From Octopus vulgaris (taxonomy: Eukaryota), in contig OX597819.1 of assembly GCA_951406725.2 (NCBI GenBank), positions 52,638,001 to 52,702,000 of the forward strand: a DNA stretch of 64,000 nucleotides, given 5' to 3'. Within the stretch, counting starts at the first letter, position 1. Every line of letters starts with the position of its first letter. This document shows positions 36,181-64,000 of the stretch, piece by piece. A model generated the notes under the pieces. It saw only the letters and a list, made by a program, of their open reading frames with translations, ran no database searches and was not told the origin of the DNA. The position numbers were made by a program, and so were the translations under genes.

Positions 36181-36227
<47 letters not shown>

Positions 36228-36285: not shown

Positions 36286-36319
<34 letters not shown>

Positions 36320-37129: not shown

Positions 37130-37348
37130 GTTTCAAATTTCAGCACACAAGGTCAGTAATTCTGGGGTAGGGGTTAAGTCGATTATATCAACCCCAATGC
37201 TCAACTGGTACTTATTTCATTGACACCCAACAAAAGGATGAAAGGCAAAATGAAGCTCAGTAGAATTTCAACTCAGAATATAAAGGTGGATGAAAAACCA
37301 TTAAGCATCTTGCCCAGCATGTTAACGATTCTGCCAGCTCACCACCCT
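37130..37348 (-). mobile_element. SINE family B, CpG-decayed
   Basis: Family motifs with CpG>TpG/CpA changes. Similar copies at ~56630-56800 and 60150-60355. Confidence 0.8.

Positions 37349-38507: not shown

Positions 38508-38510
<3 letters not shown>
38085..38510 (-). mobile_element. SINE family A
   Basis: Reverse-complement head (CCACACAGCCATGCCTGC) and tail. Further copies at ~21303-21445, 26425-26660, 32505-32790, 40947-41870, 46255-46465, 48310-48467, 49087-49250 and 54250-54400. Confidence 0.8.
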
Positions 38511-38542
<32 letters not shown>

Positions 38543-38904
38543 CACAGACAGACAGACAGACAGAGGGAAACAGGGACAGAGAGAAGCAGGGACAAAGAAA
38601 GCGACAGACTAATAAACCAAGACCCTACACAAAGCTAAAACAAGATGATTACTTGTTTATCTAAATGGCTTCCCCCCCCCCCCCATGTTCTCCTTTCTGC
38701 ACCACATACAGTTCTTATATATCCAGAGAGTTTTCTTGCACCACTGTCAGTTGTTTAAATCAAAGTTCTACTTTTTTTCTTGCTTCTTTTGTTGTTGTTG
38801 TTGTTGTTGCTGCTTTGTCTGTTGACTGGTCTACCAATTGTTCATTCAGCGCAATGTTTTAACTGGCTGTTAGTCTATTATTCAGTTATTCTGACAGTTA
38901 TGAA

Positions 38905-38935
<31 letters not shown>

Positions 38936-39494
38936 GTAATAAAAAAGACTGCTTTGCAACTGAATATTGGCAGGTATACTGGTGAGACGGGGTTTGATGA
39001 GAGGGGGGTGGATTCTGTTGAAAACAGTTAATAAATATATGATGAGGTGTACATTTCTATTGAAAAGAAAACGAAGACCAACATAGAAACAGAAGCTTGT
39101 ATCCATACAAACATAACACATCCATGAGAATAATTAATTCCACCCCACCCCTGTACATCTTTTTTTTGTTCTTTCAATGATTAGCTGTGACCTTGAAGTA
39201 ATTTATATTCAGGCCACTTAGGTCAAAGTTCAAATACTGCCAGCATTAATTTCACCTCTGAACTAAAACAAGCACCAATATCACTGCCTAATAGAATTGG
39301 GGGGTCCATAACAACTGGCCCATGGATCAATTGGCATCGTGGCCACAGTGAAAGAATAAACTTTAAAATTTTATTTCTATTATGTTAACTATTGCAGCAT
39401 GCAGGATATTTTTTTTTGAAAAATTACCACTTCTGTCTGAGCCTCTTTCCTGTACTTATTTAAATCAGTTTTTGTGCACCAATGAGCCCACAAA

Positions 39495-39862
39495 TCATCA
39501 TCATCAACATTTAATGTCTATTTTCCATGCTGGTAAGGGTTGGAGAGTTTGATAAGAGTTGGCCAACCAGGTTCCAATTATCTGTTTTGGCATGGTTTCT
39601 ATGGCTGGCTGCCCTTCCTAATACCAAATACTTTACGGAGTGTACTAGGTGCTTTTTATGTGACATCAGCACTAGTGCTTTATACGAGGCACCAGCACCA
39701 GTGCTTTATCCATGGCACCAGCCCAGGTGCTATTTACATGGCCCCAGAAAGGGTGCTTTTTACATGGCACCAACAACAGGTGCTTTTTACATGGCACCAG
39801 TGCTTTTTACCTGGCACCAACACAGGTTCTTTCTACATGGCACCAGCATGGGTACTTTTTAC
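39495..39862 (-). mobile_element. Family C retroposon with internal ~21-bp tandem array (GTGCTTTTTACATGGCACCAGC)
   Basis: (CAT)n tail at ~39495; tandem units at ~39650-39860. Confidence 0.75.
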
Positions 39863-40643
39863 CTACAAACACTAACAATAAATAATAAGAGTGCATGATC
39901 CTCCAATCTGTGAAAAAAATTGTATTGCATGACACCAGACCACAGTGCAAAAAAAAAAAAGTTAGGTATCGCTGTAGTTAACTCACTTGACCATATCTCT
40001 CCATGTGTGCCATAGTAGGAACCAATGTCAGGTGTTGCATCTTGGAACAGTTGACTCCGAATCAAAGCCCCAGTCATGTAATGACTCCATTAAAGAATCA
40101 AAATGAATGACAGGTCAAGAGTTATAGCTTTCTCCTTTATGTTAGGAAGTCCCTCATTTCCCAACATTAGTACCACTGGTGTGATTATTGCACACTCCAA
40201 GTCTGGCTGATCAGCACTTCAAGACTGGCACGTATAGTATTGTAAAGGAGATTTAGAGTACAATAGATTCGAGAGTAACCACTGTTAAATACCAAATGGT
40301 AGTGAAACTAGGAATAAAAAATAGTCTTGTTTCATAGAGCACTTAGCATTATCCAAAGTCTAAAACTAACACACACATATCTTTTCACTTCATTGAAAAC
40401 ATGTTGCTTCTATGAAAAAAGTTGTCTTTCACTAGAGAATGTCCACACACATACACACGTGTGCTAGTACAGGTATACACACACACACACACACACACAT
40501 ATTTTACAAGCCATTACTTCTTGTTGACACACATATCAGATGAATGCGACATGTCAGTAACTATTTCCCTAATTTATCTCCTGCTTAATCCCAATCCTGC
40601 TTCAAGTAGTTCTTACTATCAAACACCGAATCTGGAATCTGTC

Positions 40644-40680
<37 letters not shown>

Positions 40681-41531
40681 CAGCGGCAGCTGCTCTTTAC
40701 TTAGTCATCAGCAACCAATTTCATGGCACTCTAGCATGGCCTCAGCTGTAATGTCTAAAACAAGCTAAAAACTAAACTTAGTCATCTCCCTTGTTACCAT
40801 CACCATCATACCTACCATCAGTAGCAGCCACCCAAAGTATAATATGTTTTCAAGATGTTTCAGTCACCTCTCTCAAAAACATTTGATATCATGAGCCAGC
40901 AAAAGAGAGGAGAGAAGGGAGATGGGGGGGGGGGGGTTTACAGTCTAGCATGGCTGTGTGGTTAAGAAGCTCAATTTGTGACCAAATGATTTTCGGGTTC
41001 AGTCCCAATGTATAATACGCCTTGGGCAAATGTTTTCTACTAAAACCCTGGTAAGGCTAAGCCTTGTGAAGTGAATTTGGTAGATGGAAACTGTGTGGAA
41101 GTACATCATGTGTGTAAGAGTGTGTGTGTGTGTGTGTGTATATATATGTATATGCAGATTGCTAGAAGAGACACTAGGCATCTTATACAATCTGCCTAGA
41201 CCACATCTCTACTAGTAGCTCATAACTAAATGATCTGAACATTGAACAATATTTATCTCTCACCAGATGGAGTACTTTTTTGTGCATATATATATATATA
41301 CACATGCATATATGGGTACAGGACATCTTCAACAGTGCAAATAACATGAAATATGTAAACAAACGAGTTAAATACATAAACAAGAAAAAATGGAAAACAG
41401 GACAAGTAAACACAGAGAAAGGACCCTTCATCAGTTGCCAGCTGTCTATCTACTCCACATTTCGAGCATTCAACGACAACATGAGTCTTCAAAGACAGTT
41501 GCCTCTCTCTCTCTCTCTCTCTCTCTGTATG

Positions 41532-41571
<40 letters not shown>

Positions 41572-41895
41572 TATGGAAAATGAGTAGCTTGTCAGATATT
41601 GTATGTAAGCTTATATATTGTACACGTGCATGTTTGTCTATCTTTTTGTCTGTGTTTGTCACCCGAGCACTCAGCCAACCCATCACTTGACAACTAGTGT
41701 TGGTTTATTTACATCCCTGTAACCTAGCAATTTGGCAAAAGAGACTGATAATATAAGTACCAGATTTTTAAAAAAACCATAAGTACTGGAGGGCAATTTG
41801 TTTGACTGAAAAACCTTGAAGGCTGTGCCCCAGCATGACCACAGTCCACTAACTGAAACAAATCAAAGATAAAAAAAAATAGCACCTTAGACTAA

Positions 41896-42294
41896 CCCTT
41901 TAGTATTCAGATTATTCTGACAAATGTATGGTTTATTTATCTGGATTTTTTTGCATTACTTATGCATTATCTTATAGCTTTGAGATGTTAATGATGTGAT
42001 TGTCCACTCTGCAAGGTGGCTGGTGTTAGGAAGGGCATCCAGCTGTAAAAACTATGCCAAAACAGACACAGAAGTCTGGTGCAGTCTTCCGCATGGCCAG
42101 CTCCTGTAAAACCGTCCAACCCATGCCAACATAAAAGGCAGACATTAATGCTGATGATGATGATCATGATGATCATGATTGTTTCTTCTTGGTAATACAT
42201 TGAAGGATAAGTGTGAGAGGCTGGATCAAACCAGTTTGAACATAAAACAGGTAGAATATTTGGGTTGGACACGGGTGGTTTAATTGCCAAAGGT
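41896..42294 (+). mobile_element. piggyBac-like MITE (family E) with nested family C copy
   Basis: CTAA|CCCTTTAGTATTCAGATT...GCCAAAGGT|TTAA, with an insertion at ~42005-42165. A partial inverted copy ends AATGCTAAAGGG|TTAA at 28191. Confidence 0.75.
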
Positions 42295-43069
42295 TTAAGA
42301 AATGCTAAGTTTGAGGAAGCGGAGGGGAGAGAGATTAAATACCCATACCTATCATGAGTCTTCATGGTCAGAACTGACTTAAGGTGCTACTTACTGAGGC
42401 GAGGGGGAAGGTAGTTGTTTTTAGCATCATTCAAACCATTACAATTAAAATGTCTTGAAGACCAATCCATAACATTTATTTATTTTTACATGCTATAACT
42501 TCCATATCACATAATCTGGAAGTTAAGCTTATAATCATTGTCCTCACAACCACCACCACCATCATCATCATCACTGTTACCATCACTCATTATTACCATC
42601 ACCACTGTAACCACCACCATTACCATCATCACCACTACAACTGTCATAATCACCACCACTACCATCACCACCACCATTATCACCATCATCCTCATTATAA
42701 TCGTCACCCTCATCATTGCTACTGCTGCTAATTTGAAGTCTGTACCAGTGTGGGTCGGTAACAAAAATAAAAGACTCAACCAACAGTAATCAACCACAAT
42801 AACAACCAGTATCATCATCGTGGTCGTCATAATCATGGCCATCATCGCCATCATAATCCTCAATCATCATCTGAGGAATAAAGGGGTTAATGCAAGGAGA
42901 CGTTTACTCATTAATAACATCATTGGACATTCTCTATTAAAAGACAGCTTTCGCATAGAAGCAGCATATTTTCCATGATAGCAGTGAAAACTGAAACTTA
43001 GTTGAAATTGAATTTCCATTTCATACATATGCATCCATATATATATGTATGTGTGTGTGTGTGTGTGTA

Positions 43070-43790
<721 letters not shown>

Positions 43791-46700
43791 ACACATAACT
43801 GTATACATAAATATATATATAAATATATATACACACACACACACATATAATGTACATATCCATTATATATATGTATGTATACATGTATGTCTGTACGTAT
43901 GTATCTATATATACATATATACACACACACACACACATATATATACATAGTCATATTATATAAATATATATGTATATATATATAATGTATATACAGAAGA
44001 CACATATATGTATATATGTATATGTGTGTGTGTATACATAAACACACACACACACACACACACACATATATGAAGGAATTCAATCAGTTAGCAGCAACAG
44101 AGAATTCTTGGGTTAGTAATTTCCTCCTATCAGCAGATAAAGAAGATAAAAGAAAAAGATCTTAAATCATCCATCAACACGTTTACTTCACTTCCCACCG
44201 AGAGCATTTGGTCAAGAAACGGCAAAGTTAGGCCAGAAATAAGTTCCATATCATTTAGTTACTTCCATTATTACAGCGAAAACTTTTTATCCATCAATGG
44301 CGCTCACATCAATATATTGTAGCATGATAGTCTTTGTTGCTAATAGCCAATATAGGTAATTGAGAGCGAGGAAAAGAGACAGACAGAGAGAGAGAAATGG
44401 GTGGTGAGAAGTAGAATGAAGTGTGTGTATGGGGAGAGAGAGAGAGAGAGAGAGAGGGATTTCAAATTTGCAAATAGTTAACCATTGTCCAATGAGGCAT
44501 TGTCAATAAGAATTTCTAACCATGAATAAATACTACACCTACTACTACTACAACTACTACTACTGCTACCACTACCACCATCGCCACCACCACTACAATG
44601 AAAACTATTAATACCACATCTTTAAAACTCAATAATATGTTGAAATGCAGGATATTGCCAAAGCTGGCAGTGAAAGCCTGGCCATAAGATAAATCATCAT
44701 CACCATCATCATCATCATCATTATTAGCATAGCTACCACCCACCACTGCCGCTGCTGCTGCCGCCACCATGGCCATCCATCATTATTACCATCATCATTA
44801 TTTCCTTTTAACATCTATGCTTCCATGCTCACATAGGTGGAATAGGTCAACCCTGTCAACAGTACAACAACAGTACTGAAGTGTAGTAACCAGTGAAAAG
44901 ATTTTATGGATGGGTGTCCTTCTTAATGCAAACCACTCTCTATTATATGTACATATACATGCCGGCATGTTTGCATATGTGTGTGTGTGCGCGCGCACAC
45001 ACATGCAAATAGGTGTATTAACACACACATACACACACACATGCATGCATACTTATACATAGATTATACGATAGAATTTATGAGGGAATTTATTATATTT
45101 TTAACATGAAATGAGTCAGTCATATTAGCTATGTAGTTAAATGACAGGACAGTTAACGACAGAGTTGTGAGTTCAAATGCAGCTACAGCCTATAAACATC
45201 TGCACATACACAGATTTTATGAGAGAATATATCACATTTTTAGCATGAAATGAGTCAGTTAAACTAGTCATGTGGTTAGATGACAGGACAGTTAACCAAA
45301 TAGTGCCAGAGTTCAAATCCAGCCATATCTTATATCTAGTGAAATCCTCTACCATAGTACAATTAAACAAGTTTCAAAACTCTTATAAAACTTGATATAA
45401 AGTTCTTTGTCTTTATATAATTCTTTTTTTTTTTTTACAAAAAACGGGAAAAAAAAATTTCTTTTTGATAACTTTTAGGAATCAAAATAGTCTTGATAAC
45501 TATTTTTAAATCTACAAGAGTAAGTCATGAATAAATACTAAACCAAGAATATTGCTATTATTACTACTATGAAAAGTATTACTGCCATCTTAAAGAGGAT
45601 GTCAAGAGGAAATGACCGTCTTGCCCTCATTACAAATTCACATACACATTAGCTTCTGACAACCAAACAAAATCACTTATGCAACATCTCATTTATTAAG
45701 AGAAGTAAACTTTAAAAATATATGGTGGGGAAGAACAGGCCAAAAAAAAAATAGAAAGAAAAAATTCCACATTTAAAAACAAACAAATAATAGCAACAAA
45801 ATAAATCAGAGGGATTTTGAGCTAATGAAGAAGCTACTCTGTGATGGCTCAATTGGTTAGAAAGACTAACCACATCAACTTCTAATCACTAAGAACCTGC
45901 ACTACCACCCCACCTACTTTTCATAGCTCCATCCCCCCTTGTTCCCTAGCATGAAGCTAACCCCATCCGTCCAGGGTTTGTAGTTCTGCAAGCTGCATAG
46001 TGCTGCATGGCAACCTCAATAGTGTGGGTGGCATGAATAAAGCACCCATTCCATGTTGTAAAGTGGTTGGCATTAGGAAGGGCATCCTGCCTTAGAAACC
46101 ATACTAAAAAAAAGAAACTGGACACATTGGATCCTGTCAAACTACCCAGCCCATACCAGCATGGAACACAGACATTAGATGATGGTGGTGGTGGTGGTGG
46201 TGGTAGTGGTGATGTATGTATGTGTGTGTATCTGACTGTCTGCCTGTCTATCTGTCACTGTGTCCTAGAGTTTGTGTTTATCTTCCCACCACTTGACAAC
46301 TGCTGCCAGTTTTGTTTATGTTGCTGTAACTTAGAAGTTTGGAAAAAGAAATTGATAAAATAAGTACCAGACTTCAAAAATATGCACTGGGGTCAAATCA
46401 TTCAACTAAAATCTGTCAAAGCAATGCTCTAGCATGGCCTTAATTCAGTGAGCGAAATGAGTAAAAAAAAAAAAAATTAAAGATACACAACACAGTGAAC
46501 CTAAATGAAAATGCATCTGCCTCTCACTAAATATTCTACTGAGTCAAGGCAGGAGCCTCAACATGGTTACATAACCTGTTAGAAATAGCAAGTATGGTTT
46601 GATAGTAAGTTTTATGCTTTCACTAATTGTTTTAAGTGTTCATGTCGTTGTGAGCAGTCATAAACCTCTTCTCAGGTCTCTCACTCTTGACCCAATGGAA

Positions 46701-49046
46701 AATTCAGGGTAAGACAGATGGTACTCATGACAAGCAGGAGCAATGTGAAACGAAGTGCCTTGCTCAAGGACATAATGTGTGACCCTGGCCAAAAAAAATA
46801 ATCTCATGATATTATTAACAGAAGTGAAACTCTCTAACCAGCGGGCCACATTACCTACACTTTGAAGATATACAGTTGACTGAATTGTTTCCTAGCACCA
46901 AATTGCTGGAACTTATTTCATTGATTCCAGAGTGAACAGACTTCAAAAGAAGGAAGTATAAGTTTGATGATGTATATAAAAAAGAGACACCATCAATCCT
47001 ATAGTCCAACTCTTTACCATTGTACCATTTCTACTGTAATATGAAAATTGAAAATAATAATAATAATAATAATAATAATTAACTAATGCCAGATTTTAAA
47101 CATCATTCCCAGAATTTTAGCCGGTTTCCAAATCAATAAGCTATGCTAAGTAAATTAGAATCCAATTTCTTTAACCAAACATCGCCAGCAATTGAAGGAA
47201 GCAAAAGATGCTTCAATAGCTGCCGATGTCTTTTAAACAAGGAACAATCAATGCCATGTCAGAATCAATATGGTTGGATTGTTTTTCTTTCAAAATACAA
47301 AAGAATGATTACTTTACAAGAAGCTGCCATTATCAGAAATGCTGTCTGAATGCCACCCCATCAGAATGTGGGGGGATGGGGGGGGTGCTCATGCACAGGT
47401 GTGTGTGGAGGGAGGGGTGCTGTTTTCCCTTTCTGTATCAAATTCATGTTTATACAAGCATCTGATATGGTTTAATGTTGAAATTTTAGCAGTTAATTAA
47501 TTCATAATAGCGAAGAGAATTATATGATATCAGATCAAAATTATGTGAAGATGGATGTATACATATACCCATATTCATATATATATATATATATACATAC
47601 ACACACACATGTATATATACATACACACACACACACACACATATATATACATAAATACACATGCAAACATACATATACACACAAACACACACATAAACAC
47701 ACACAAGATGGATCCAGCTATGTTATTCAATATTGCTTTCCAATCTTGATTTTACTTAACAATTATGGGCATGTAAACTGTGATAAATGAATCCTCACAA
47801 GTATCTTCATTAAGATCAGTGGTTGGCAGAGAGAGACAGGCATGGCCTGTCTACTAGACAATCAAGAACATCTACTTTTGGACTTCATTATGCCAGGTTT
47901 AAACCACTCAGAGGTCTACTCTGCCAATCAAATCTATAGTAGGAAAACAAGCAAATGAAGGAGCAGGGGCATACCTGAACATGGTCGTTTAATATGCTAG
48001 AAATAGTAGTAAAATTTTTCTCAAACCCAACAATGTCAGCTTTAGAAAGACACATTGGATAATGTAGTTTCTTCATTTAATATCTATCTACTTCTCCATG
48101 CTAGCCTGGACTGGAATTGGTTTTTGCAGTAAGATTCTTACAGTCAGATGCTCTACCTGCTGCCAACCCTCACCCATTTTTTAGGTCAGGCGTGGCGTTT
48201 TTATATACAAAACTACAAAGTAATGGCCATAAATGACCACATGGAATGTCAGCCACTGCTTCACTTAAACAGGGACAAGCAAAATATCAACATCCACATA
48301 CACAAGATGTGCTTACTACAGTTTCTAGCTACAAACTTTACTTACGAGTCACTGGTCAAACTGAGGCAATAAAAGAAGGCACTTGATCAAGGTACTGCAC
48401 AATGATGGAATTGAAACCAAAATCAAATGGCTGTGAAATGAACTTCTTAACCACACAGTCATGTCTGTGATGGAAGTGGGATGGATGTGTGAAAAGATGG
48501 GATGGCCATGATTGGAATTCCTTTGATTATAGGTCTGATAAATCATCACAGCTGACCTGGGACTAAATAAGAGTAACACAGACTCCCTGGACAAATATGA
48601 TAGTATTGACCAGACTAACGGATGTTGTTATACATCACTGGTCACACTGCGCTTCACATTGTTTTAGCTGTCAGATGATGACATCCCACTAGCTAGATGA
48701 GCAGGCCAACATTCCCCCGATCAGAAGACTATTCTGCCACAGGGTTACTCATTTACAGCTGAGCAAACAGAAGCAGCATGAAATGAAGTGTTTTGCTCAA
48801 GAATGCAGCACGTTGCCGGTTCTGGGAATCAAACTCATGATCTAGTGATCATGAGTGCAACACACTAACCACTAAGCCATGTGCCTTCACATAGACAGAT
48901 ATACCCCAATAAAATAAAAAGTTCAGTTTAGTTGATTATATCTGATTCCTTTTCCCATAATATCAACTTATTTATTAAATGAAAGAAATAATATTGAAGC
49001 AGTATTATTACTGCTCATTCTTAACAATGAACTTCAATCACAAAAT

Positions 49047-49078
<32 letters not shown>

Positions 49079-51725
49079 AGCGCATGATAGGCTTCTTTCA
49101 GTTTCAGTCTACAAATCTACACACAAGGCTTTAGTTATCCCAAGGCTATAATAGAAGACACTTGCCCAAGGTGCCATGCAGTAGGACTGAACACAGAACC
49201 ATGTGATTGGGAAGCAAGCTTCTCACCACACAGCCAGCCAAACCTGCACCTATACTTATTTAAAAATTTTTTTTTTTTCAGTCTGCAATCCAAAAGCTCT
49301 CTCTCATTCCACATAGAGTAATTAATCTTTTTTTAAGAGGATAACAGATATGAAGAGCAAAATGTTGCAATTAATTTGTTTGAAAATCAAATGGATGTAA
49401 GAACCCATAGTTGGGGCAAAACCTTGGGTAATTACAACTTTGAGCAAATTGACAAATGGGCATCTAGTCAAATATAACATTGCATAAATCTAAGCAGTGT
49501 TTAAAATATGGATCCCAATATTTTGCCATTAGCATATAATGCAGAATAAAATACACACACACACATATGTATACAAAGAGAGATGGGGAGAGACAGGTGG
49601 AAATGCAGTCCACCGTAGTCACTGGTAATGTAGTTGAAGGCGGTCAGTTTGCAAGAAGAGGTAAAGTAAAAGATGGACAAAAACATTATGACAGCACTTC
49701 AGCCATAATTCTAGGTGATGGATAGGCTTCCCGTGAATGTGTGAATGCTTGAGCACTTTTGTATGTGAGGGAATGAGTGGGTAAGTGAGAGAGAGAGAGA
49801 CAGACAGACAAACAGAGAATGAAAGAGATAGAGAAAAGAAAGAGCATGTGTGCAAGTTTGTGCATGCATATGTATCAGTGTGTGTGTGTGTGTGTATACA
49901 TATATGAATATATACACACACACACGCAAACAGCTACATACTGGTGCATACATAAATATACACAAACACACACAAAAGTACACAAACACTCACAATCAAA
50001 TACACACGCACACATACATATATTACATTTAACAGTTATTATCTGTTCATCATGTTATGCAGATAAGCTACTTAGAGAATGGCAGTGCCTGCCTTACCAA
50101 ATGTGAACTACACACACTGACACACATACACACACACACACACACAGATCAGTCCATAGACACACACACACAGACAGATAAGTATGTACACACCATACTG
50201 CAGCACTGAATTCCAAACGAAGAGCAAATAAGTTCAATCATTAACCATTTCCTACACTGACCAAAAGTGGAACCACTTTAGAGCTTAGGAGTTCCGACAG
50301 AAGCTTGACAAACATTAGTTTTTACACGAGAGAGAAGGAGAAAGTGGGAAGTTCAGCATGAGAGGCCTACTGGAATGGAAAAAAGACAAAAGGTGTTAAA
50401 AAAAAGACAAAAAAAAAAGAATCCGACATCAGTCAAGTGTGTGAACGACATTTTCGCTTCACTTCTCCAGAGATCACCATTGCTATCTCAAACAACTGGA
50501 GCCATGACATTCTAAGCTCAGTGGCATTTTAAATAATGCTGCTGGGCAACTGTATTGCATTAAGAGCACATCAATAGTTAAAGCCTTGAAATAGTACCAC
50601 CACAGCAGCTATTGACTGAAGAATCTACTCACCATTTTTAAATGTTCGTGGATGCACGTAAGTTTGTACATAAGTGTATACATGACTATGGATGTATGTG
50701 TATGTACTTATATGTTGGTATATGTGTGTGGGTGCGTGTGTGTACGCTGTATATACAATCACACACCATGCACATCTCTCTCCCGTTTTCTCTATATATA
50801 CACACACACTTATGGATATATGTATACGTGTGTGTATAGAATACCATTGTTAAAAAACAAACTGATGCTGATTATAATGGTGGTGGTGGTGGTGGTAGTG
50901 CTACTGCTGGCAATAATGATGATGACAATGATGAATGCCATAGAACTGTAGGCAAATAGAGTTTGTGACACGACTGAAATTAAGCTATTAGTGGCTGTTT
51001 TTCTTGATCACACCTTTTCATTTCACTTTGAATAACTGGCTTCGCACATGGGAAAGGCATGCATGTCACAACATTTATCCAGTCTTCCTTAAATGTCTCC
51101 CAGAGAATTCAGCATAAAACTTAGTGTCATTGTAAAAAGAAAGAGACAGAGCTTAATAGACAGATAGAGAGAGAGAAGGAAAGAGAGAGAGAGAGAGCTT
51201 GTTCAAGAAAACTTTGACATTCTTTGTTTACGACACTGGTCTCCATATACTACAGCATCTCTTACAATATATTTAATAATATTCTATTTTATTGATGCCT
51301 AACTAACATTAACAGTATATAGATTAGAGATGCGCCAATATATTGTGCATTTCTTTGTCCTACCACGTTAATGTTGGGCATAAAATAAAATAGACTATTA
51401 TTATTATTATATAGAAATTTAAAAGTTGTTGTTGCTGTTGTAATACACAGAAAGCAGTGTTCTCGAGGGAAAATAATGGAACTGCATAGGACAGAGGAAT
51501 AAACAACATGCCAACACCAAAACTAACACATTGCTAATCTATACAACTTGTAAAGCTTGAGAAACAATTTGGCAGTTTATCCACAGCCCAACCTCAACAC
51601 CTGACACCAAAACGTATGCATAAACATGCACTCACATATAAATTTAGCTGCTGGTTGAGTGTTTTTTTTTTTTTGGGGGGGGGGGGGGTTCAATGAAGAC
51701 AATACATAAAATATATGGTCGAAAA

Positions 51726-51770
<45 letters not shown>

Positions 51771-51867
51771 GACCCATATACATCAGTACATACACACATA
51801 TACATATGTATATGTATATGTCTCTATTTGCACAATATATGTTTGTGTATACACACTATCTATCTAT

Positions 51868-52233
51868 CCGCTCAGTCGACTCTCGGTTACTCTTTGGATC
51901 AGTGTCCTCCAGTCAGTTCTATCCTGGGCTGCTTTTTTCAGATTGGCTATATCCATTCTGGTATCCCTCTTCATGGTGTCAAGCCAGCGGGTTCTTGGTC
52001 AGCCTCTTCTCTTGCCACTGACCATTCCGAGCATGATGTCCTTCTCCAGGGGTTTTCTCCGCATAACATGACCGAAATATGCCAATCTATGCTTGGTGAT
52101 CCTAGCTTCTAGCGACATTTTCAGCCTGATCTGCTTAAGAACTTCTCCATTGGTGAGAGCCTCACTGTCCATGGAATCCATAAAAGCCTTCTCCAACACC
52201 AAAGCTCGAATGCATTAATTCTCTTCTGGCTGG
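51868..52233 (-). mobile_element. RTE (BovB-like) LINE, 5'-truncated and frameshifted 3' fragment
   Basis: Minus strand reads QKRINAFELWCWRRLLWIPWT, frameshift, TNGEVLKQI...RLAYFGHVMRR..LEKDIMLGMVSGKRRG*PRTRWLD...AAQDRTDWR. This is the classic RTE ORF C-terminus. It is followed by a (GATA)n tail. Confidence 0.92.
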
Positions 52234-52611
52234 TATACACACACACAGTCATAAATACAACACAATACATACATATATATCTATCTAATGTACATATATA
52301 AAAACATACACATGCATATCTATCTATATGCACAATAGATGTGCATATCTACCAACCTATCTAACAAATACATATGTGTGTGTGTAAAAGAGTTTTTTTT
52401 GAAAGAAAAGAAAATGTCTACATGTATGGTAATACTCAATGGAACAATGAGCCGCATGCTATCAGTGAAGGCAGAAGGGAGACAGACAAAATACATAATC
52501 CAAGCAATTCTATTTTTCATTGACAAATAATACCAGCATGGCAAAAGAGGAGCATCATAGATGATGATTCTTGCCTGCCTAGAAAATAACCTACACCTAA
52601 TCTAACCAAGT

Positions 52612-52910
52612 GGAGGCACATGGCCAAGTGGTTAGAGCAGCGGACTCGTGGTCGAGGGATTGTGGGTTCGAATCTCAGACCGGGCGATGTGTGTGCTTAT
52701 GAGCGAAACACCTAAGCTCCACGTGGCTCCAGCAGAAAGTAATGATGAACTTCTGCTGACTCTTTCGCCACAACTTTCTCTCACTCTTTCCACCTGCATC
52801 TTGCAGCTCACCTGCAACAGACCAGCATCCTGTCCAGGTGGGGAACCTATACGCCAAGAAAACCGGCCCTATGAACCAGGCGTGGCTCAAGAAGAAACAC
52901 ATAACAGCAA
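52612..52910 (+). mobile_element. SINE family D with ~13-bp TSD
   Basis: GGAGGCACATGGCCAAGTGGTTAGAGCAGCGG...GGTTCGAATCTC. TAATCTAACCAAG at 52598-52610 versus TAACCTAACCAAG at 52911-52923. Confidence 0.9.
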
Positions 52911-54659
52911 TAACCTAACCAAGCAAAGAATTTGTATCAGTTGCAGTAGTTACATTAGTAGCCACTAGCACGCTAAAACTCTACCATTATGTACTGCACA
53001 AAGAGAAGATTTGGAGAAATATGTAGATTTTGTCTGGCACATGTTGGTATTAAATATCAGGTATTAAACGAGATGGTGACGATGATGATGAAGAATGATA
53101 ACAAAGATGACTATGATGGCAGCGGTGGCAGTGACGAAAACGACGACAATGAAGGAAAAGATGAGGAAGAAGATGGTGGCAAAAAACAACAACGAAGACG
53201 ACGAAACCCTAATTGAGTTATTGAATGTCGCAAACTTGTTAATGGGTGGGAAAAAAAATAATTTACATTGCAAGTTGGTGTGAAGAGACAAGAGTTAACA
53301 ATAAATAAATACATGAAATAAAAACTAAAAAAAAAACAAAAATAAAACTCATCGAATTATAATGAGGAAAAAGACTAAATAGTTTTACCAGTGATGTAAG
53401 GAAATATAGTTTTGTCTATAAATAGGAGGAAACCCACAAATAAGATAATTTACTCAACTGAAAGATGAAATGATTATACATAAGGAGAAAATAGAAGAAA
53501 AAAAAAGTAGAAGAAATCACACAAAATAAAACTAAAGAACAAAGAGCACTTATCTCCTTAAGAAATAAATTGGAATATAAGAGAAATTAACAAGACATCT
53601 GGAGTGTGTTATGGAGGAAGGAGTAGAGTGAGGGAGGGGCGGCAAGAATGAAGCTCAAAATACTAAGAGAAACAACAGTTGTAAGTGAAATTAGAAACAA
53701 GCAACTAAACGAGTATTGAGAAGGCGGCGGAGAGAGAAAGAGAGAGAGAGAGAGAAATGCGTAAAGGGAGGCGGGGGGAACAGACAGAGATTGATTACAT
53801 ACAAAATCTTTGAGACTTGTGCAAACATGTACTTAAACAGAAGAAAAAAAAATAAAATAAAATACTTTAAAAAATACGAGAAAAATCAACAATGAGAAAA
53901 GAAATATATATAAACACATAGTTGAAAATATAAGCAAAGAAACAAAAAGCAAAAAAAGACACGATTTTGTTGCGGTTGTTGTCGTCTCTTAGATCAAAAC
54001 GGTAAAGCAGTAAAGGTACTTGAACAGAATGAACATGGTACCTCATTCATAAATAACACTCAAGACCTAGAATAACATAATGCATAGTTATGCATTACAT
54101 GTGTTGTCTGTGACATGCTTATTTCGGTAAACAGCTACTTCAAACTACATCAGTAGTAACTACAGCACACTGTAGTTTGACTGTGGTTTAATCAAGATGA
54201 CTTGAATCTCAGAGACAATGTGTAAGAAGCTTCTCTCTTTCCGTGCCTGAGTGTAGTTAAGAAGTTCGCTTTGCATCCAGGTGGACTGCAGGTTTGATCC
54301 CACTGCATGGCATTGAGAGCAGGTGTCTTCAACTATTGCCTTGAGATGACCAATGCCTTGAGCATAGAATTGATAGACGGACAATAAAGGAAGCCAGTCA
54401 CATGTGTGTGTTCAAATGTGCGGCTTTTAAATGTTTGTGTGTTGTGTAAAAACAATTCCACTGCCTATGTAGTGGTGTCTTTCTTTACAGTCTGTCACGA
54501 AAACATGTCCAGCCACTGAGCTGTTCCTTGTGGAAAAGAACTAGGGGAAATAGTACTTCACTCGGACACAAATGAGAGCTGGGGATGTGAAGAACAGAAA
54601 ACCATAGGAAATATGCTTGAATAACTTGCATCTTATTTATGCCAACATAATAAAATAGA

Positions 54660-54947
54660 CACCTCTGCTATCACCTTGGTGGCAATGACAGCAATAATAC
54701 AGATTTCTATTGAAGAACCTGGTCTATGTGTTTTAATCTACCTTGAAAATTAACAATATAGGATTCTACTGTTCACAATGAATCTTAAGAAACAAAATCC
54801 CCATATAAAAGCAGTCACAAGGCCAAACATCCCTGAAAGTTTCACCTAAATCCATCCAGCGATTTTTGAGATATCTTGTCCGTGGACAAATAAACAAACA
54901 AATACAACTGAAAACAACACCGCTGCCTTTGCTAAGGCAAGGTAATA
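54660..54947 (-). mobile_element. Helentron-associated (HINE/DINE-like) non-autonomous element
   Basis: Minus strand starts TTATTACCTTGCCTTAGCAAAGGCAGCGGT (hairpin), then a (TGTT)n-like tract and AAGATATCTCAAAA..GCTGGATGGATT...GAAACTTTCAGG. Layout recalled for HINEs. Confidence 0.55.
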
Positions 54948-57098
54948 ATAAAATGACAGAATTCATTCAGTACATTTCAGGAAAGGCTTAATGCACCAAC
55001 ACTCTCGGGTGTAATGTAATCTACAATGCAAAATACTTGTAAAACAATAAGGTAAACATAGAAAGAAAAATCAACAGATGTGAATATGAAAAATAAGCAA
55101 TATAACTACAGCTGTAAAAAATGGAAACAAAGTTAATAAAAATCTTTAAAATAATAAAAATAAACTGTCCATTTTCAAAATTTTATTGCACAATGGTTCC
55201 CAAAGTATTTTCCTGTCACGATCCCCACACCCACAAACTCATTACCATTTCCCCATGCCATAGAAACCTATTAAAATGATTATTCAGAAAAGCAGTTTGC
55301 AAGATACTACAAAAGATAATAATCATTACCAATTACAATTAATTTCACTATTTATTCAAAATTAAATTACAACCAATTGGTTTAATTAATTTAACAGAAG
55401 TGATGAAATTGATCCAAAGAGACCAGTTTTCCAATCTGATAATCATCTAGTAACAGTCTTGTTATATCTCACATTTACAAAAATATTACTGCATTCACTA
55501 ATTTCATATTATAATGGATGATGAGACCATACCTCATCATAATTTTACACTCTTACAGACATAGATTTATCCTTGGGTGGTAGGCATTGGCTGCAGAGCC
55601 AACACACAGAACCTTTCACGACTTATCAATTCATGGCATCACCTACTCCAGATCCAATGCTTCTGATTGGAATTAGATTAATATAGTTTTCATATATGGT
55701 CATCAGACTACATTTTAGCACCCTAACCTATTACAGTCTATTGTTATATCATCATGGCTTTTTTTAAATATGTAATTTATTGAAGTTGTGTAGACATGTT
55801 TAGTGATTGTTGGGTTTGCAATCAATCATAAGGCATTGTGTCCTTGAGCAAGGCTCTTGATTACATGTTTGATCCAGTCTACTCAGATAAAAGTGAGTAA
55901 CAGGCACATGAGAGCAGCTGCTGCTGCTCTCTCTCCCCTTCTCTCACCAGTTATCACATCTTTGGTGTTTCACAGGGTCAAAAAGGAGAAAGCTAAAAAG
56001 GTCCATGTCTACTCACAACTACACAGACACCTAAAACAATCAGTAAAAGCCAAGTCCCTGCTACTACTAAATTATCCTTGTTTGTGAGTGATGGCTATGG
56101 AATCCCTTTATTTGTTCTCTTTATTAAAGAAGATACAAAAAATTAAGCACAAAACAAAACTAACAATCTTTTTTTAAAGTGGATGCTTCTATCAAAAAAT
56201 TCTATAGAGTAAAAGAATATTTAAAAACAAAAACAAAATATAAAACAGTATAAAAGAATAAAATCAAGAACATCTTTCTTTTCCACTTCTAAGATCAAAG
56301 CTAAAAACTAAAAGACCAAACACCTAAAACAACTTAACAAATGATCATTTTGAAAAAAATAAAATCAATTACATAAATAACCTTTCCTTTTTGAGATTAA
56401 AGCATTGTTTGAAACTTTAATGCATTATATAACAATTTACATTTAGTCAGTGTTAAAACTGGTACATATTAACTGATTTCAACTAAACAACTCTGACTCT
56501 ACAATTGTTGTAAGAAGCACAACAAATTGCCTGTCTTAACACTGCCATTTCATACTTGGGTACCTTAGTACATGTGTACCTTAGTACTTGGGTGCCTTTA
56601 GCAGAGTGCTCTGAATTGTAAACATTTTGGTTTCAAATTTTGGTACAAGGCCAGCAATTTCAGAGGATGGAGATAATTGACTGCATCAGCCCCAAAAACT
56701 GGTACTTATTTTATCGACCCCGAAAGGGTGAAAGGCAAAGTTGACCATGGCAGGATTTTAAGACAGCATTTTGTCTAGTGTGTTAATGATTTTGACAGCT
56801 TGGTGCCTTAATCATAGTAAACATTTTAACAAGATCTCTGGTTTCATCCCAAGCTCCCCACCCATTTTCATTTTTTTTTTTTATATCCTGCAGACCTTGG
56901 GATGTTCTAGCAGTGTACTGGGTATCAACCACATCAACCACCCACATCTGGAGGATCTTATAAAGGTTACAAGTATTGAATCCTGATCCCTTCTTTTCTT
57001 AATTTTTTTTTTTTTAGATTCCACTTTTAAACCAAAACATGGCTTGTTTTACCATTTATTTAAGGAACAACTTTAACAGCATTAGGTAAAAATTGGAG

Positions 57099-57213
57099 AC
57101 TTACCGCATATTCCAAAATTTAATGATGAAACATTTAAGAAGGGTTTTTTCATAAATCATGTACTTACCTACAATGAGAAAAGAGACGCAAGTGTGAAAA
57201 GCATGTTAATCAG
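57099..57213 (-). other. Recursive splice site (ratchet point) with 64-nt cryptic RS-exon
   Basis: Minus strand: CTGATTAAC (branch-like) ATGCTTTTCACACTTGCGTCTCTTTTCTCATTGTAG|GTAAGT, junction at 57169/57168. A second donor, GCG|GTAAGT, lies at 57105/57104. Confidence 0.65.
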
Positions 57214-57545
57214 TTATATATAAATAACATATTTATCAACATTATTTTAATGTCCATACAAATACACACACACACACACATATACTGGTAAGCTGCACCA
57301 GGTTCCAATCTGACTTGGCAAAGGTTCAAGGACAACAAGCCGTAGAAACCTTGCCAAATCAGACTGGAACCTGGTGCTACTCCCCAGCTTACCAGTTTTC
57401 AGTGAAACCGTCCAACTCATGCCAGCATGGAAAACAAACATTAAATGATGATGATGATATAAATGCATATTATACATACATTTAAATATAGGAAAAAATT
57501 GAAAATGGAGACAAACGCTCAAGATGTTATTAATTCATTTATACC

Positions 57546-57645
57546 TTCATATCATCAACATATGTTTCGATGGATGCATTCAAAATAAATCTGACAGAAT
57601 GAATAATGTAGAGCAATGTATCAATCTCATCAGGGAGGATATAAA
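57546..57645 (-). ncRNA. Type I hammerhead ribozyme motif (GUU triplet)
   Basis: Stem I UUUAUAUCCUC/GAUGAUAUGAA, C-CUGAUGA (core at 57633-57627), long stem II, GAAAC-AUAU-GUU. Confidence 0.7.
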
Positions 57646-58525
57646 TAAGTGCTCATCAATTAGATATTTTAACAGACATAAGAAACTCCAATATACACAT
57701 ATACATACATGTACACACATACATACACACACCTACAAACACACACATGCATAAACATATGTACACATACTTACATACATACACATACATAAACACATGC
57801 ACACATACATAAATATAGATGCATATACATACAGGAACACCTACAAACCTACACACATATATGGAAAGTGAAGTTGTGAAGGGAAAGCTAGAAATTTGAA
57901 AATGGTGTTGAGGAAACAGATGCCATAGGGCAAGAGAAGAAGAAAAGGAAGAAAGAGGGAATGAAAGAACAAAGTTAAAGGAGAAAGGGAGGTACAAGCA
58001 AAAGAGTATAGATGATAGATGGAAAGAAAAGATGAAGGGAAGAATATGGGTTATGAGAAGCAAGAATAAAGGTAAGTTGCAGAAATTATTACTTGATGAG
58101 GGGGTAGATATTATTTTAAAAAAGCAAGAGTGTTTTTTCCAATGTAAACACCTGTAAACTCATTTATTAAAGGTGCTTACCATATGGTTAGAAAAGAAGA
58201 TAGATAGTTGCTTGTCTATACAAAGAGGACAAAAAGATTTCCCTTTGTCATGGGGGAATGATCTGGAAAAATTTTCCAGTCTAAAGAAAAGAGTTTATTA
58301 GTCTTTAAGGTGCCAAATTAGCTTACTAGGTCCTGTAGAATTATGCTTATGACTGTATTTAAAAGTTGAAAGATGGTTCGTGATACGGCATTTCAACTCC
58401 GTAGAAGATAATCCAATATAAAAGAATTCTTTAGATTGGTAAATGGCATTTTTAATACTGTAATTTCCATTGAGGACACAAGTTTGTATATATGTTTATG
58501 CATGTGTGCATGGGTGTGTGTACAC

Positions 58526-58580
<55 letters not shown>

Positions 58581-58620
58581 CATGTGCATGGGTGTGTGTA
58601 CGTGTATATATATATATAAT

Positions 58621-58907
58621 GTTGTTTGTTCATAAGGGTTCATAAGCGCCGGTTTCCTGGTTTCCTTGGTGTATAGGTTCCCCACATGGACGGGATGCCA
58701 GTCCATCGCAGGTGATCTGCAAGATGCAGGAAAGAGTGAGAGAAAGTTGTGGTGAAAGAGTCAGCAGAAGTTTGCCATTACCTTCTGCCGGAACCGCGTG
58801 AAGCTTAGGTGTTTCACTCATAAACACACACATTGCCCGGTCTGAGATTCGAACCTGCGATCCCTCGACAGTGAGTCCGCTGCTCTAACCACTATGCCAT
58901 GTGCCTC

Positions 58908-58908
<1 letters not shown>
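58621..58908 (-). mobile_element. SINE family D
   Basis: Reverse complement of 52612-52910; lies within a (TA)n tract. Confidence 0.9.
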
Positions 58909-58950
<42 letters not shown>

Positions 58951-59010
58951 GCATCACATATACTGGAGTCTCTTATATCAGTTAAAATATCTAACTGATG
59001 AGCACTGTTC

Positions 59011-59110
59011 TTTATATCCTCCCTGATGAGATTGATGCATTATTCTACATTATTCATCGTGTCGGATGTATTTTGAATGCATCCATCGAAACATATGTCG
59101 ATGATATGAA
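59011..59110 (+). ncRNA. Type I hammerhead ribozyme motif (GUC triplet)
   Basis: Stem I 59011-59021/59100-59110, CUGAUGA 59023-59029, stem II 59030-59041/59076-59087, GAAA 59088-59091, stem III AC-AUAU-GU, predicted cleavage after C59099. Confidence 0.8.
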
Positions 59111-59317
59111 GATATAAATGATTAAATAACAGCTTGAGCATTTGTCTCCATTTTCAATATTTTCTATGCTATCCTAAATATGTCTCACTTCTTCCCAGAA
59201 TTAACTCCCACACTAGTGTGATCACTGATTCCTGGGACACTTAAGCAACATCTGGCTGCCTTGCAATTATTCCCTTGGATCTTTCCTATAAATTGAACAC
59301 TCATACATTTAAATATG

Positions 59318-59498
59318 CACGTAAAAGCACCCACTACACTCTTGGAGTGGTTGGTGTTAGGAAGGGCATCCAGCTGTAGAAACTTTGCCAGATCAGATTG
59401 GAGCCTGGTGCAGCCATCTGCTTCGCCAGACCTCAGTCAAATTGTCCAACCCATGCTAGCATGGAAAGCAGACGTTAAACGATGATGACAATGATGAT
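59318..59498 (+). mobile_element. Family C retroposon 3' part
   Basis: CACGTAAAAGCACCCACTACACTC...CCATGCTAGCATGGAAAGCAGACGTTAAACGATGATG. Confidence 0.8.
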
Positions 59499-61446
59499 AC
59501 ACCTATACATATATATCTACACACACACATGCATACCTACATGTACATTCACTTACAAATGTATAAACATATAGATACATTCATACAAAGACATACATAC
59601 ATGCACACGCTCACTGACATATGTTCATACACAGATGATAAGACAGGTGGTTGCTAATACAAACAATTCAAACTGCAAGCAAATGGTGAACATCCCAAAT
59701 AACCATAACATCTGTTATAAACAATGGTACACTTCTCTCTCCCTCACACACAACACATGCACGTGCACAAACACACACACACAACTTTAAGATGCTGTCA
59801 TAGTACAACTATCTGTAGATATGTATCAAACTTAAGATGAGAAAAATCTCAAGTACAGGACTGCCTTGAGAGTGAAACAGGAAAAAGTCAAGCACTTTGA
59901 AAGATCAGGAGATAAATTTGCAACACCACTCATGTGTTACTACAAGATGTTATTGTGTCTTTTGTTTAAATTTCACTAGAATATTCCTCCTTGGAAGTGG
60001 CAACTGCCTTTCAAGAACTATGAGAAGGACAATATCATTATAAAGTCATTGTTGTCGTCATTTTACAATTTGCTTCCAATGCTGGCATGGGTTGGACAGT
60101 TAGACAGGATCCACTGGGTTGGAGAACCGGATCTTGCCTTAATGTTCCAGGCAGTGAGCAGCAGAATCATTAGTATGTCAGACAAAGCTAAGCATTTTGT
60201 CTATCTTTATGTTCTGAGTTCAAATTCCGCCATGGTCGACTTTGCCTTTCATCCTTTCAGAGTTGATAAAATAAGTACCAGTCACGTACTGGGGTTGATG
60301 TAACTGACCTACCCCTTCCCCTGAACTTGCTAGTCTTGTGCCAAAATTTGAAACTGGTGTTCCACTGTTAGTATGGTTTCTTTGATTGAATGCCCTTCTT
60401 AATGACGACCACTTTACAGAGAGTACAGGATGCTTTTTCCAAATCACCAGCACTAGTGATATTGTCTTGCTAAGAGAATGAAAAAAAAAACCTACAAAAC
60501 ATCGGATCCAATTTAGATAAAGTTCAATCACCATGATGATCATCATCATTGAACTAAGGTTTATATTTCTAAATATTGGGGTGGTGGTGTTGTAGATGAA
60601 GTGTATCAATCTTGGTTAGATTAAGACCCACAAATCTAAGTGCTCCAATATAAGTAATTCAAAATATGGACATTGATAAATCATAAAATAAATCTTTCCC
60701 GTCATATAAACTACTTTGAATATTATTTTAGCAAGTTTAAAGTGATTTCTTTTGTACCATAAACCATTTACCATTTTTCTTGATGCTTTAAGCATGTTTA
60801 TTTTACTTCATGGTTAATCCACCACTGGTATCAATGTACACAACAGAGAGTGATTTACTTCCAATAACAAAGGGCTTGAAGAAGAACAATAGTGTAGGTA
60901 AACTTTCTAAGGCTGCCTTGAAATGGGTTGGTTATAGTTTACAACTGTTTGAACCTTCAAAAACTTTTAATTGGGTAGTAAACATAATCAAACAGCAGAG
61001 GTCTAGAAGCATTTTGCTTTTGTCTCAAGATATGTCAGGTACTGGCTCATCTGTCTTAAAAACAATATGTAAAATTACACTGAATAAGGTACACATAGAA
61101 AGCCCTGGTGATAGTGCCACATAAAAAGCACTCGGTACACTCTGTTAAGTGGCTGTCATTAGGATGGGCATCCAGCTGTAGTCACCAAGCCAAAACAGAC
61201 AATGGAACCTTGTGCAGCTCCTGGCCCTGCCAGCTCCTGTCAAGCCATCGAACCCATGCCAGCATGGAAAATGGCTATTAAATGATGATGATGATGAATG
61301 ATGACTAGAAGAAAAAGGATGGAATGGAAATGATTTTGTTCATAGACCTGCTTACTCAGGGCCACCCTGGGGCTAAACAGTAACATTATGATCAGCATTA
61401 TTCATATTAGTACAGGGAAAAGACACATATGTGCGTGAATGTAGAC

Positions 61447-61676
61447 AGGAGTGGCTGTGTGGTAAGTAGCTTGCTAACCAACCACATGGTTCCGGGTTCA
61501 GTCCCACAGCATGGCATCTTGGGCAAGCGTCTTCTGCTATAGCCCGGGGCCGACCAATGCCTTGTGAGTGGATTTGGTAGATGGAAACTGAAAGAAGCCT
61601 GTCGTATATATGTATATATATATATGTGTATGTGTGTATATATGTGTATATATATATATGTGTGTGTATATATGTG

Positions 61677-61714
<38 letters not shown>

Positions 61715-61918
61715 TGTGTGTGTTTGTGTTTGTCCCTCTAGCATTACTTGACAACCGATGCTGGTGTGTTTACGTCCCCGTCACTTAGCAGTTCGGCAAA
61801 AGAGACCGATAGAATAAGTACTGGGCTTACAAAGAATAAGTCCCGGGGTCGATTTGCTCAACTAAAGGCGGTGCTCCAGCATGGCTGCAGTCAAAATGAC
61901 TGAAACAGGTAAAAGAGA
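61447..61918 (+). mobile_element. SINE family A, full length with expanded internal TA/TG microsatellite
   Basis: Complete head, ~125-bp internal microsatellite (61604-61730) and tail; most CpGs retained. Confidence 0.92.
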
Positions 61919-62722
61919 GAAAAGAGTAAGAGAATAACATGTATCAGTACTATTTGCAGTGCATGTGTGGTTATGCTGGTGCATGACGATAGAATTGTAG
62001 GCTGGGAATGGAGAGAAAGACAGGTGGACAGAATGGAAGCGACAGTCTGAAAAAGAATGTGAATAGGTGAAAGACAACAATAGGTGCAACCGAACAGAGC
62101 AATATTGAAATTATGCATACACCCGAACACACACGCACACATATAAAATCATGTGATAATAAGATAAAATACAAATTAACGGTGTGAATGGTCAATGAAA
62201 ACAAACTAATACACTAATACCCACAACTGTAATACTAACAAAAACCAAAAAAAAAAAAAACATAAAATAGACAAATTGGATTCAATTTTTATTAGATTCG
62301 TATTTAAAAAAGAAACAAAAAGAAGAAAAAGAAATTCAGACACATGAAAAACAAATAGCAAATTAAAAGCAAACACAAATATACAAATACATAAAAATTC
62401 AATAGGATGAAATAAATGGAAGAAAAAAGAAAAAAAAACTTGAAAAATCCGACACTGAAACAAGCACTAAACTAACAGAAATCTGTAAATAGTTCCAGCA
62501 TAAACTGTGATGCAACAAGGGTGTCTTGTTCCTGGAGCTGGTTTTTGTAAGCCAGTCAAATATTAGATTATTCCAGCATAAAACAGTCAGCTCAATAGCC
62601 ATTTATCAAAGACCAAACAGAGTGGCGGAGATAATTAAAAGACCTCAGAACACCAGTGGCGGGCCAGCTTTAGCATCATTTAGGTAAACAATAAAGTGTT
62701 TACAGTAAACATTGACAAAATG

Positions 62723-62770
<48 letters not shown>

Positions 62771-64000
62771 GGTGGTGAATGGAGAAAAACACACATATCA
62801 TGATGTTAGTCTGGAGAGGGTGGAGAGAGAGAGAGAGAACAAGTAAAAGTGAGAGACAATTAATGAAAGAGAAAGACATAGAAAGAATCAGTAAAAGTAT
62901 GTGTGTGTGTGTGAAAGAAAGGGAGAGGGTGAGCAATTAATGAAAGGGAAAGCATGAGAAATGAAAATAAAGAGGGTGAGTAAGAAAGACAATGAAGAAG
63001 AGGATGAGAATAACAGAGAAGAAAGCCTAGATCAAAAAGAAAGGGTTAGGGACAGACAAACAGACAAAAGAAGAGGGAGGGAGGGAGGAGTGATTGAGAT
63101 AAAGAGAGGAAAAGTGAGGGAAAGAAAGAAAAACAGATAGATAGCCAAACAGAAAGAAGAAAAAAAAAAGATAGAAAACAAGAATGTGGACAAAGAAAGA
63201 GGTAGGGAGAGAGAGAGAGAGATAGTGAGAATGTCAAAGACAGAAGAGGCAAAGCAAACATTTGAGATGGAGTGAGAAGATGTGAGTGGGGAAGAGAGCT
63301 ATTATTGAGTTCAGAAAAAAAAAGAAAAAAAAATTGAAAACAGGAAAAAAAAAAAAAAGACAAAAAAGAAAAATCAAAATCAAAATCAAAATGAAGGTAA
63401 AAATAAACAAATAACTGAACTAGTATGTTGAACTGCAACAGACTGGAATCATTAACCAATATTATTCCATTATTCAAAAAGTCAATCAGTAAAGTATTTG
63501 ATAAACCGCCAAGAACAAACATCAACCATTGCTCCAACAAATATAACACACACACACACACACACAAGATAAACATAAGGACCGAAAACACCGCATACAT
63601 AGTCATCAAATATCACGTACACACGCATACGCAAAAGACAAACAGAAGGACCAAACACCGCAGACACCTACACAAGACAAAGACCACACACATATATAAA
63701 CACTAAACAACCACAAGGACCAACCAAACAATACACACACACACACAGAAAACAAATATGACACACATACACACACAAGGCAAACAGAAGCACCAAACGC
63801 ATTCCTCATGTAATGTCAACAGTCTGTGAACTCGCACAAGGCAAACAAATAAGCTAGCAAGCGATCAATGGTAGGAATATTTCATATTAGATATCGGAGA
63901 GAATAGAAGGCAGTGTGGTGGCGTGGGTAACATCATCATAGTTTTATGGCATGGGAGTCCCGAATGTTTGTATTATCGTGGCTATTGCACATATTCTCTT

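Follow-up and report, generated by a model that had tools for sequence, protein, structure and literature searches.

Structure of the site

The DNA analyzed here (the window) is a 64,000-nt stretch of the Octopus vulgaris genome, positions 52,638,001-52,702,000 of contig OX597819.1 (C6). The window falls within a far longer stretch between two coding exons of the gene SMG5, and its minus strand, which is the sense strand of that gene, carries a compact module resembling a fused splice acceptor and donor (Table 1). The initial annotation had described this module as a branch-like motif, a pyrimidine tract, TAG|GTAAGT, and a second GCG|GTAAGT 64 nt further on, all on the minus strand, and all of these elements were recovered in place.

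Table 1. Elements of the candidate recursive-splicing module, in window coordinates
Feature	Position	Strand	Remarks
Branch-point-like CTGATTAAC	57205..57213	-	-45 to -37 from the junction; putative role, from sequence
Polypyrimidine tract	57172..57204	-	25/33 Y; -36 to -4; within a 116-nt AG-free zone
Candidate ratchet-point 3' splice acceptor TAG	57169..57171	-	Acceptor score 6.7
Candidate ratchet-point donor GTAAGT	57163..57168	-	C6:52695168; would be regenerated after joining of the upstream SMG5 exon
Cryptic RS-exon, 64 nt	57105..57168	-	SMG5 frame (phase 0): Val-Ser-Thr-stop; frame-shifting
Second (RS-exon) donor GTAAGT, preceded by GCG	57099..57104	-	Donor score 6.8
Portion of the 888,010-nt SMG5 inter-exon stretch, likely host intron	1..64000 (entire window)	-	C6:53343780 to 52455771

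The nearest AG upstream of the acceptor TAG lies as far as 116 nt away. Recomputation bore out the earlier statement that the 64-nt exon shifts the frame and is closed by stops in two of the three frames, the stop in the SMG5 frame being codon 4. The exon has an uninterrupted run of 20 codons in frame 2, whose 20-aa product had no match in the PDB, and its G+C content is 27%. On a heuristic matrix, the donor at the junction scored 6.4 vs 6.8 for the second donor. The hexamers AATAAA/ATTAAA occur at +44 and +108 from the site. Three sequence features that define a ratchet point are present: an acceptor fused to a donor, a sense position in a long, likely intronic stretch, and a short cryptic exon followed by a second donor.

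Both strands of the window together contain 13 AG|GT[AG]AG sites, four of which have the form AGGTAAGT. A strong tract precedes one of these four, with 16 pyrimidines among 20 nt at the site under study vs 9, 5, and 5 at the others; the module is indeed the sole polyY-AG|GTAAGT on either strand of the window, as had been claimed. The surrounding 221 nt are single-copy, their sole match in the genome being themselves. Very abundant short repeat fragments flank the unique module at window positions 56600-56800 and 57300-57460, and we take them to be SINE-like. Elsewhere, the window contains a 956-nt (TA)n run (43068-44023) and a minisatellite block with 23/35/69-nt units (19408-19873). Of 24 sequencing runs with matches to window positions 55300-57200, none on record as RNA, contigs from four were compared with positions 55300-57690. 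They matched mostly as repeat fragments, with low-depth unique contigs at 55384-56989; bin 57060-57139 was uncovered in all four, and among the loose ends and joints listed, none fell at 57168 or 57104. As assembled contigs, they speak neither for nor against use of the site. An excess of T>C differences in the contigs of one run was not read as RNA editing, for want of a matching DNA run.

The host gene and its annotation in octopods

An exon scan of 464 kb revealed a 60-nt minus-strand exon, 240 kb downstream of the site, with a sequence identical to octopod SMG5. Simple exon and ORF heuristics over the same 464 kb recovered this single SMG5 exon, and an 88-codon ORF near it had no homologue (0/29 candidates). 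When a mollusc SMG5 protein (P0027) was aligned to the genome, residues 22-900 were placed at C6:53512864-53343778 and the remaining residues at 52455770-52390074, in collinear order and on the minus strand throughout. The two exons flanking the stretch are 100% identical to octopod proteins named SMG5 (PF10374/PF10373 and PF13638, respectively). The gene has an N-terminal part with EST1 and EST1_DNA_bind, a C-terminal PIN domain, and collinear exons, and it was identified on these grounds as SMG5. Matches to the PF10373 profile in the genome fell at loci other than this gene. EST1_DNA_bind matches were observed at C6:31205278-31211306 (-) and C22:22659443 (+), which are likely SMG6/SMG7 paralogues.

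The upstream exon ends in QERM and is followed by GTAAGT, and the downstream exon begins with VNAESRR after CAG, both in phase 0. The residues encoded by the two exons abut in five of the eight full-length mollusc proteins (P0017, P0018, P0022, P0025, and P0027); a one-residue gap separates them in P0030, and P0020 and P0029 align less cleanly. The distance between the two coding exons is 888,010 nt, with zero N in 914 kb, and the site lies 648,612 nt into this stretch in the sense orientation. The neighboring SMG5 introns measure 84 and 40 kb. The stretch is likely an intron of SMG5, in which the two flanking exons would be joined. Among the longest 150 of its 363 filtered ORFs, eight had Pfam matches, all to transposon domains. 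LINE-type endonuclease and reverse-transcriptase ORFs lie inside it at L094:1435-4214 (+), L084:939-3419 (-), and L093:563-1546 (+). The 60-nt coding exon that closes the stretch (L023:7711-7770, minus) begins CAG|GTAAAT and ends CAG|GTAAGC, which is the layout of an expressed RS-exon; its skipping would be in frame and would delete a conserved helix before the PIN domain.

Public octopod SMG5 annotations break at or near the 888-kb stretch, so that one half is N-terminal and the other contains the PIN domain alone. Four PIN-only models, from O. bimaculoides, O. sinensis, Argonauta hians, and O. vulgaris (P0003, P0031, P0032, and P0033), start at the downstream exon, and a fifth from O. bimaculoides (P0034) starts one exon later. 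Of the nine N-terminal models, seven stop just past the upstream exon; the other two, both from O. bimaculoides, stop earlier. None of the 191 proteins examined was an octopod SMG5 spanning the stretch. The shared break in annotation suggests that the giant intron is common to O. bimaculoides, O. sinensis, and Argonauta.

Sibling sites in the same stretch

A search of the whole stretch for AG|GTAAGT with an acceptor score of at least 3 revealed five sense and no antisense sites, at offsets 121, 145,236, 301,272, 568,897, and 648,612, the last being the site under study. A weaker sixth sense site lies at offset 833,706 (acceptor score 2.9). With a combined score of at least 8, the counts were 11 sense vs 2 antisense, and AGGTAAGT without a tract filter was found 18 times in sense vs 9 in antisense. 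The chain implies segments of 121 nt and then of 145, 156, 268, 80, 185, and 54 kb. A strong second donor is present at one of the six sites, the one described here (6.8); the values at the other five are 4.3 or less. The site nearest to the upstream exon, a strong polyY-CAG|GTAAGT at C6:53343659 (minus), is 121 nt past the donor of that exon and has no second donor close by; a ratchet chain that opened with a segment of 121 nt would be unusual.

Models from O. sinensis link the upstream exon to two of these siblings. In the RefSeq SMG5-like models X1 and X2 (P0039 and P0038), the upstream exon is followed by the tail VSLFYTLCCDNAI, and in X3 (P0036) it is directly continued by VSNNNLQYII. Each tail has one AG-preceded match in the 888 kb, and these matches are the ratchet sites at 145 and 301 kb. 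As these tails match the O. vulgaris genome at 100% identity, they reflect usage in one species or between very close ones and say nothing of deep conservation. RNA junctions usually underlie alternative RefSeq models of this type. The annotated joins to the two siblings have the form expected of recursive-splicing intermediates and are, though indirect, the strongest independent evidence for such a process. A perfect GTAAGT follows 18 of the 45,277 sense AG positions in the stretch, and both annotated siblings are among these 18. A-runs of 11-14 nt lie downstream of both annotated siblings and of the site under study, so that oligo-dT capture of splicing intermediates may be possible.

Other models end away from ratchet sites: the end of P0040 is formed by an ordinary acceptor 7.5 kb into the stretch, and P0042 is a read-through of the donor. 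The two-residue tail of P0041 (X4) has 18 matches and is uninformative. An Argonauta model ends in Val-Ser-Thr, which among the AG-preceded positions of the stretch matches the site under study alone and is maybe a read-through. We attached little importance to this tail, since the model is partial, the first residue of its partner model is derived from intron, and a similar tail arises in P0042 by reading through the upstream donor.

Distribution of fused sites in the octopus genome

The strict pattern Y12-N-YAG-GTAAGT had 154 matches in the genome, vs 43 for its reverse, 28 and 60 for a pattern ending in GTAATG and its reverse, and 28 and 48 for a pattern with the AG flipped and its reverse. 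The enrichment was thus 3-5-fold (154 vs 28-60). Among the first 100 of the 154 sites listed, neighbors shared a strand in 12 of 12 cases within 300 kb and in 14 of 15 within 500 kb, and the share faded to 49/86 at any distance; in the same 100 sites, 15 close pairs were seen vs 3.5 expected by simulation. Same-strand chains of strict sites were observed at C13:4468665-4805422 (+, five sites), C13:56677060-57801944 (-, four), and C9:104955602-105622543 (+, three), and these are likely other giant genes. Two near-identical sites with second donors lie 93 kb apart at C12:64851935 and 64944751, an apparent local duplication. The L049, L051, and L069 sites are mutually alike, so that a few of the genome-wide matches are repeat-borne.

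Ordinary exons of one gene also share a strand, and the test for a second donor therefore weighs more. Matches to Y8-N-YAG-GTAAGT followed by GGTAAG numbered 34 at a gap of 30-75 nt (6 for the reversed pattern) and 4 at a gap of 130-175 nt (5 reversed), the second donor in this class being 36-81 nt beyond the junction. Among strict-pattern loci, 8 of 30 had a donor score of at least 4 at 30-90 nt, vs 1, 0, 1, and 1 in windows farther away. The 34 exons of the class are 37-80 nt long (median 56.5) with a mean G+C of 0.32; 12/34 preserve the frame, and in 11/34 every frame contains a stop, compared with 39% for random intron. These exons are cryptic, not coding. The genome-wide enrichment check for polyY-AG|GTAAGT that had been proposed for the site was run and was positive in the number of matches, the same-strand clusters, and the second donors (34 vs 4). 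The site under study is absent from both strict patterns because of one A in its tract, and these tests consequently support the class and not this particular site.

Proposed mechanism and alternative explanations

Taken together, the data make it likely that the site is a recursive-splicing ratchet point in the 888-kb SMG5 stretch, one of about six. The earlier proposal that octopus removes this long minus-strand intron stepwise has gained a host gene, a chain of sites restricted to the sense strand, and annotated joins at two siblings; that the present acceptor is used, and that re-splicing follows from the recreated donor, is inferred. In the putative order of steps, passage of the polymerase would allow exon definition across the 64-nt cryptic exon, from the acceptor to the second donor, and the upstream SMG5 exon would be spliced to the ratchet AG. 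The joining would recreate a donor, the exon end ATG plus GTAAGT, which would be used for the next segment. Onward splicing would discard the cryptic exon, and the intron would be removed in segments of about 54-268 kb each. Should the second donor be chosen instead, translation would stop at codon 4, SMG5 would be cut before the PIN domain, and the RNA would likely go to nonsense-mediated decay (NMD). The two donors are nearly equal (6.4 and 6.8), so that some inclusion of the cryptic exon is plausible. Against this reading, the re-splicing step has been seen at none of the sites, and the donors are about equal here, whereas ratchet donors in flies are generally stronger than RS-exon donors according to the accessible text of PMC8605326. 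The confinement of a strong second donor to one of six sites, the model ends away from ratchet sites, the 18 vs 9 count of unfiltered AGGTAAGT, the mismatch of the site to both strict patterns, and the lack of a spanning octopod protein among the 191 examined also count against it.

Chance was estimated as a product of separate factors, with the antisense strand of the host intron as background and with heuristic weight matrices of generic frequencies. As score thresholds were set post hoc at the values of the site, the figures are orders of magnitude: 0.006 fused sites of such acceptor strength are expected per window, or 2.5e-5 with an equally strong second donor, and the same estimate gives about 255 fused sites genome-wide and about 1 with a comparable second donor. 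These genome-wide numbers, as well as the 28-60 matches still yielded by control patterns, would accommodate a chance motif or an unused decoy within a long intron. Such an origin is nevertheless very improbable, since 0.04 such fused sites are expected per strand of the host stretch, acceptor scores of at least 6 are reached there by three sense and no antisense sites, the site is the third-ranking AG|GT when both strands are considered, and every part of the module is present, including the AG-free zone of 116 nt. The motif was confirmed as real, single-copy, and far above chance expectation. A nested gene or long non-coding RNA on the same strand, with the 64-nt piece as one of its ordinary exons, would fit the open frame 2, and small exons of nested genes could slip past the ORF screen; however, the Pfam matches among the ORFs screened are all to transposon domains, and the G+C content of the exon and the lack of frame preference in the cryptic-exon class make this identity extremely improbable. 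All retrieved octopod models are halves that do not cross the stretch, as would be the case if SMG5 were truly divided in octopods into an N-terminal gene, ended by the sites, and a PIN-only gene. We hardly expect this to be so: the halves are collinear on the same strand, both flanking exon ends are in phase 0 and border intact GT and AG, and no residue is lost between them; models disagree on where the PIN half starts, as expected for invented starts; and the sense-biased sites run on to 833 kb, close up to the PIN exons.

The likeliest alternative is that the AG is a real acceptor, belonging to a poison cassette exon or to an alternative last exon that yields PIN-less SMG5, and that no re-splicing occurs from the first donor. 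The O. sinensis models treat the siblings as terminal exons, the two donors here are of equal strength, AATAAA/ATTAAA hexamers lie at +44 and +108, and the SMG5 mRNA is itself a known NMD target, both in human cells and in flies, as stated in the available part of PMC6680220. However, both annotated siblings start with a perfect GTAAGT, which is rare among the sense AGs of the stretch and which a plain last exon does not need; the A-runs of 11-14 nt could have let oligo-dT capture intermediates; and such hexamers are frequent in AT-rich DNA. This route is quite unlikely as the full explanation of the site, and it could coexist with ratchet use as a minor route. By analogy with the NMD sensitivity of SMG5 mRNA elsewhere, a feedback role for the ratchet site is conceivable. 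A bolder version of the ratchet reading holds that octopus uses fly-style recursive splicing genome-wide, at roughly a hundred sites or more, with cryptic exons of about 55 nt and on a scale well beyond that of flies, and that the SMG5 chain doubles as a regulator. In this version, the present site, alone in having two donors of equal strength, would choose between re-splicing and inclusion of the stop-bearing exon and so let an NMD factor set its own level via NMD, and the siblings could release PIN-less SMG5. We regard this combination as speculative and rather doubtful.

Significance

A literature search found no report of recursive splicing in octopus, cephalopods, or molluscs, and nothing relevant on SMG5 in octopus; subscription papers and supplements were largely outside the search, so that a mention in a cephalopod genome paper is possible. 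No mollusc appears in the available part of the survey of RP-site enrichment (PMC2773006), and the accessible text of PMC7222433, which deals with intron expansion in octopus among other genomes, makes no mention of recursive splicing. The element is likely of a known kind, a fly-type ratchet point. If the interpretation is correct, recursive splicing extends to molluscs, which would favor the view that the mechanism and its cryptic-exon design arose early in bilaterians. The six sites in one gene and the 154 strict-pattern sites genome-wide are a test set ready for existing total-RNA data. In databases, octopod SMG5 is entered as two half-genes plus truncated "isoforms," the latter probably intermediates of splicing; similar annotation errors may affect other giant genes of cephalopods, and same-strand ratchet chains could locate them.

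Comparison with known recursive splicing

The site resembles Drosophila ratchet points in its fused YAG|GTAAGT, its sense orientation in a long intron, and the presence of several sites per intron (1-6 in the fly). A further likeness is the short out-of-frame cryptic exon closed by a second donor; according to the accessible sections of PMC8605326, fly RS-exons are about 50 nt long and generally out of frame, and exon definition followed by onward splicing that drops the cryptic exon is established for flies. Fly ratchet points were first sought through junctions that link an annotated donor with an AG|GT inside an intron, as far as the available text of Duff et al. (10.1101/006163) describes it, and the upstream exon is likewise joined to an unannotated intronic AG|GT in octopus, at two siblings and by annotation. 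Unlike in Drosophila, the octopus stretch measures 888 kb with segments of 54-268 kb plus the first 121 nt, whereas the same text gives 11-133 kb for recursive introns of the fly and 2.6-64 kb for their segments; the octopus stretch is about seven times longer than the upper limit for fly introns. The putative branch point lies at -45 to -37 here vs a fly range of -36 to -21. The near equality of the two donors also differs from the fly, although the greater strength of the ratchet donor is a tendency in flies and mammals and not an absolute rule (PMC8605326, available text). Finally, fly sites have saw-tooth and lariat proof, whereas the octopus site is a candidate known from its sequence.

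With recursive sites of vertebrates, the octopus site would share RS-exon definition with donor competition, a very long intron, and an exon that bears a stop if included. Such sites were reportedly described in long vertebrate genes by Sibley and colleagues in 2015. The octopus genome differs from those of mammals in its excess of roughly 95-125 strict-pattern sites, which brings it nearer to the invertebrate pattern. In mammals, few sites are fully suppressed, nine being noted definitively in the accessible text of PMC8605326, and strand enrichment is small, with a ratio of 1.5 or less in the part of PMC2773006 available. The latter survey (Shepard et al.) reported, in the same part, that RP sites are computationally enriched in the large introns of fly, mosquito, bee, beetle, and sea urchin. 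Unlike that survey, as far as its available text goes, the present analysis includes a mollusc and tests of the second donor and of host-gene junctions; like the large invertebrate introns described there, the octopus SMG5 stretch shows a sense-strand excess of fused sites.
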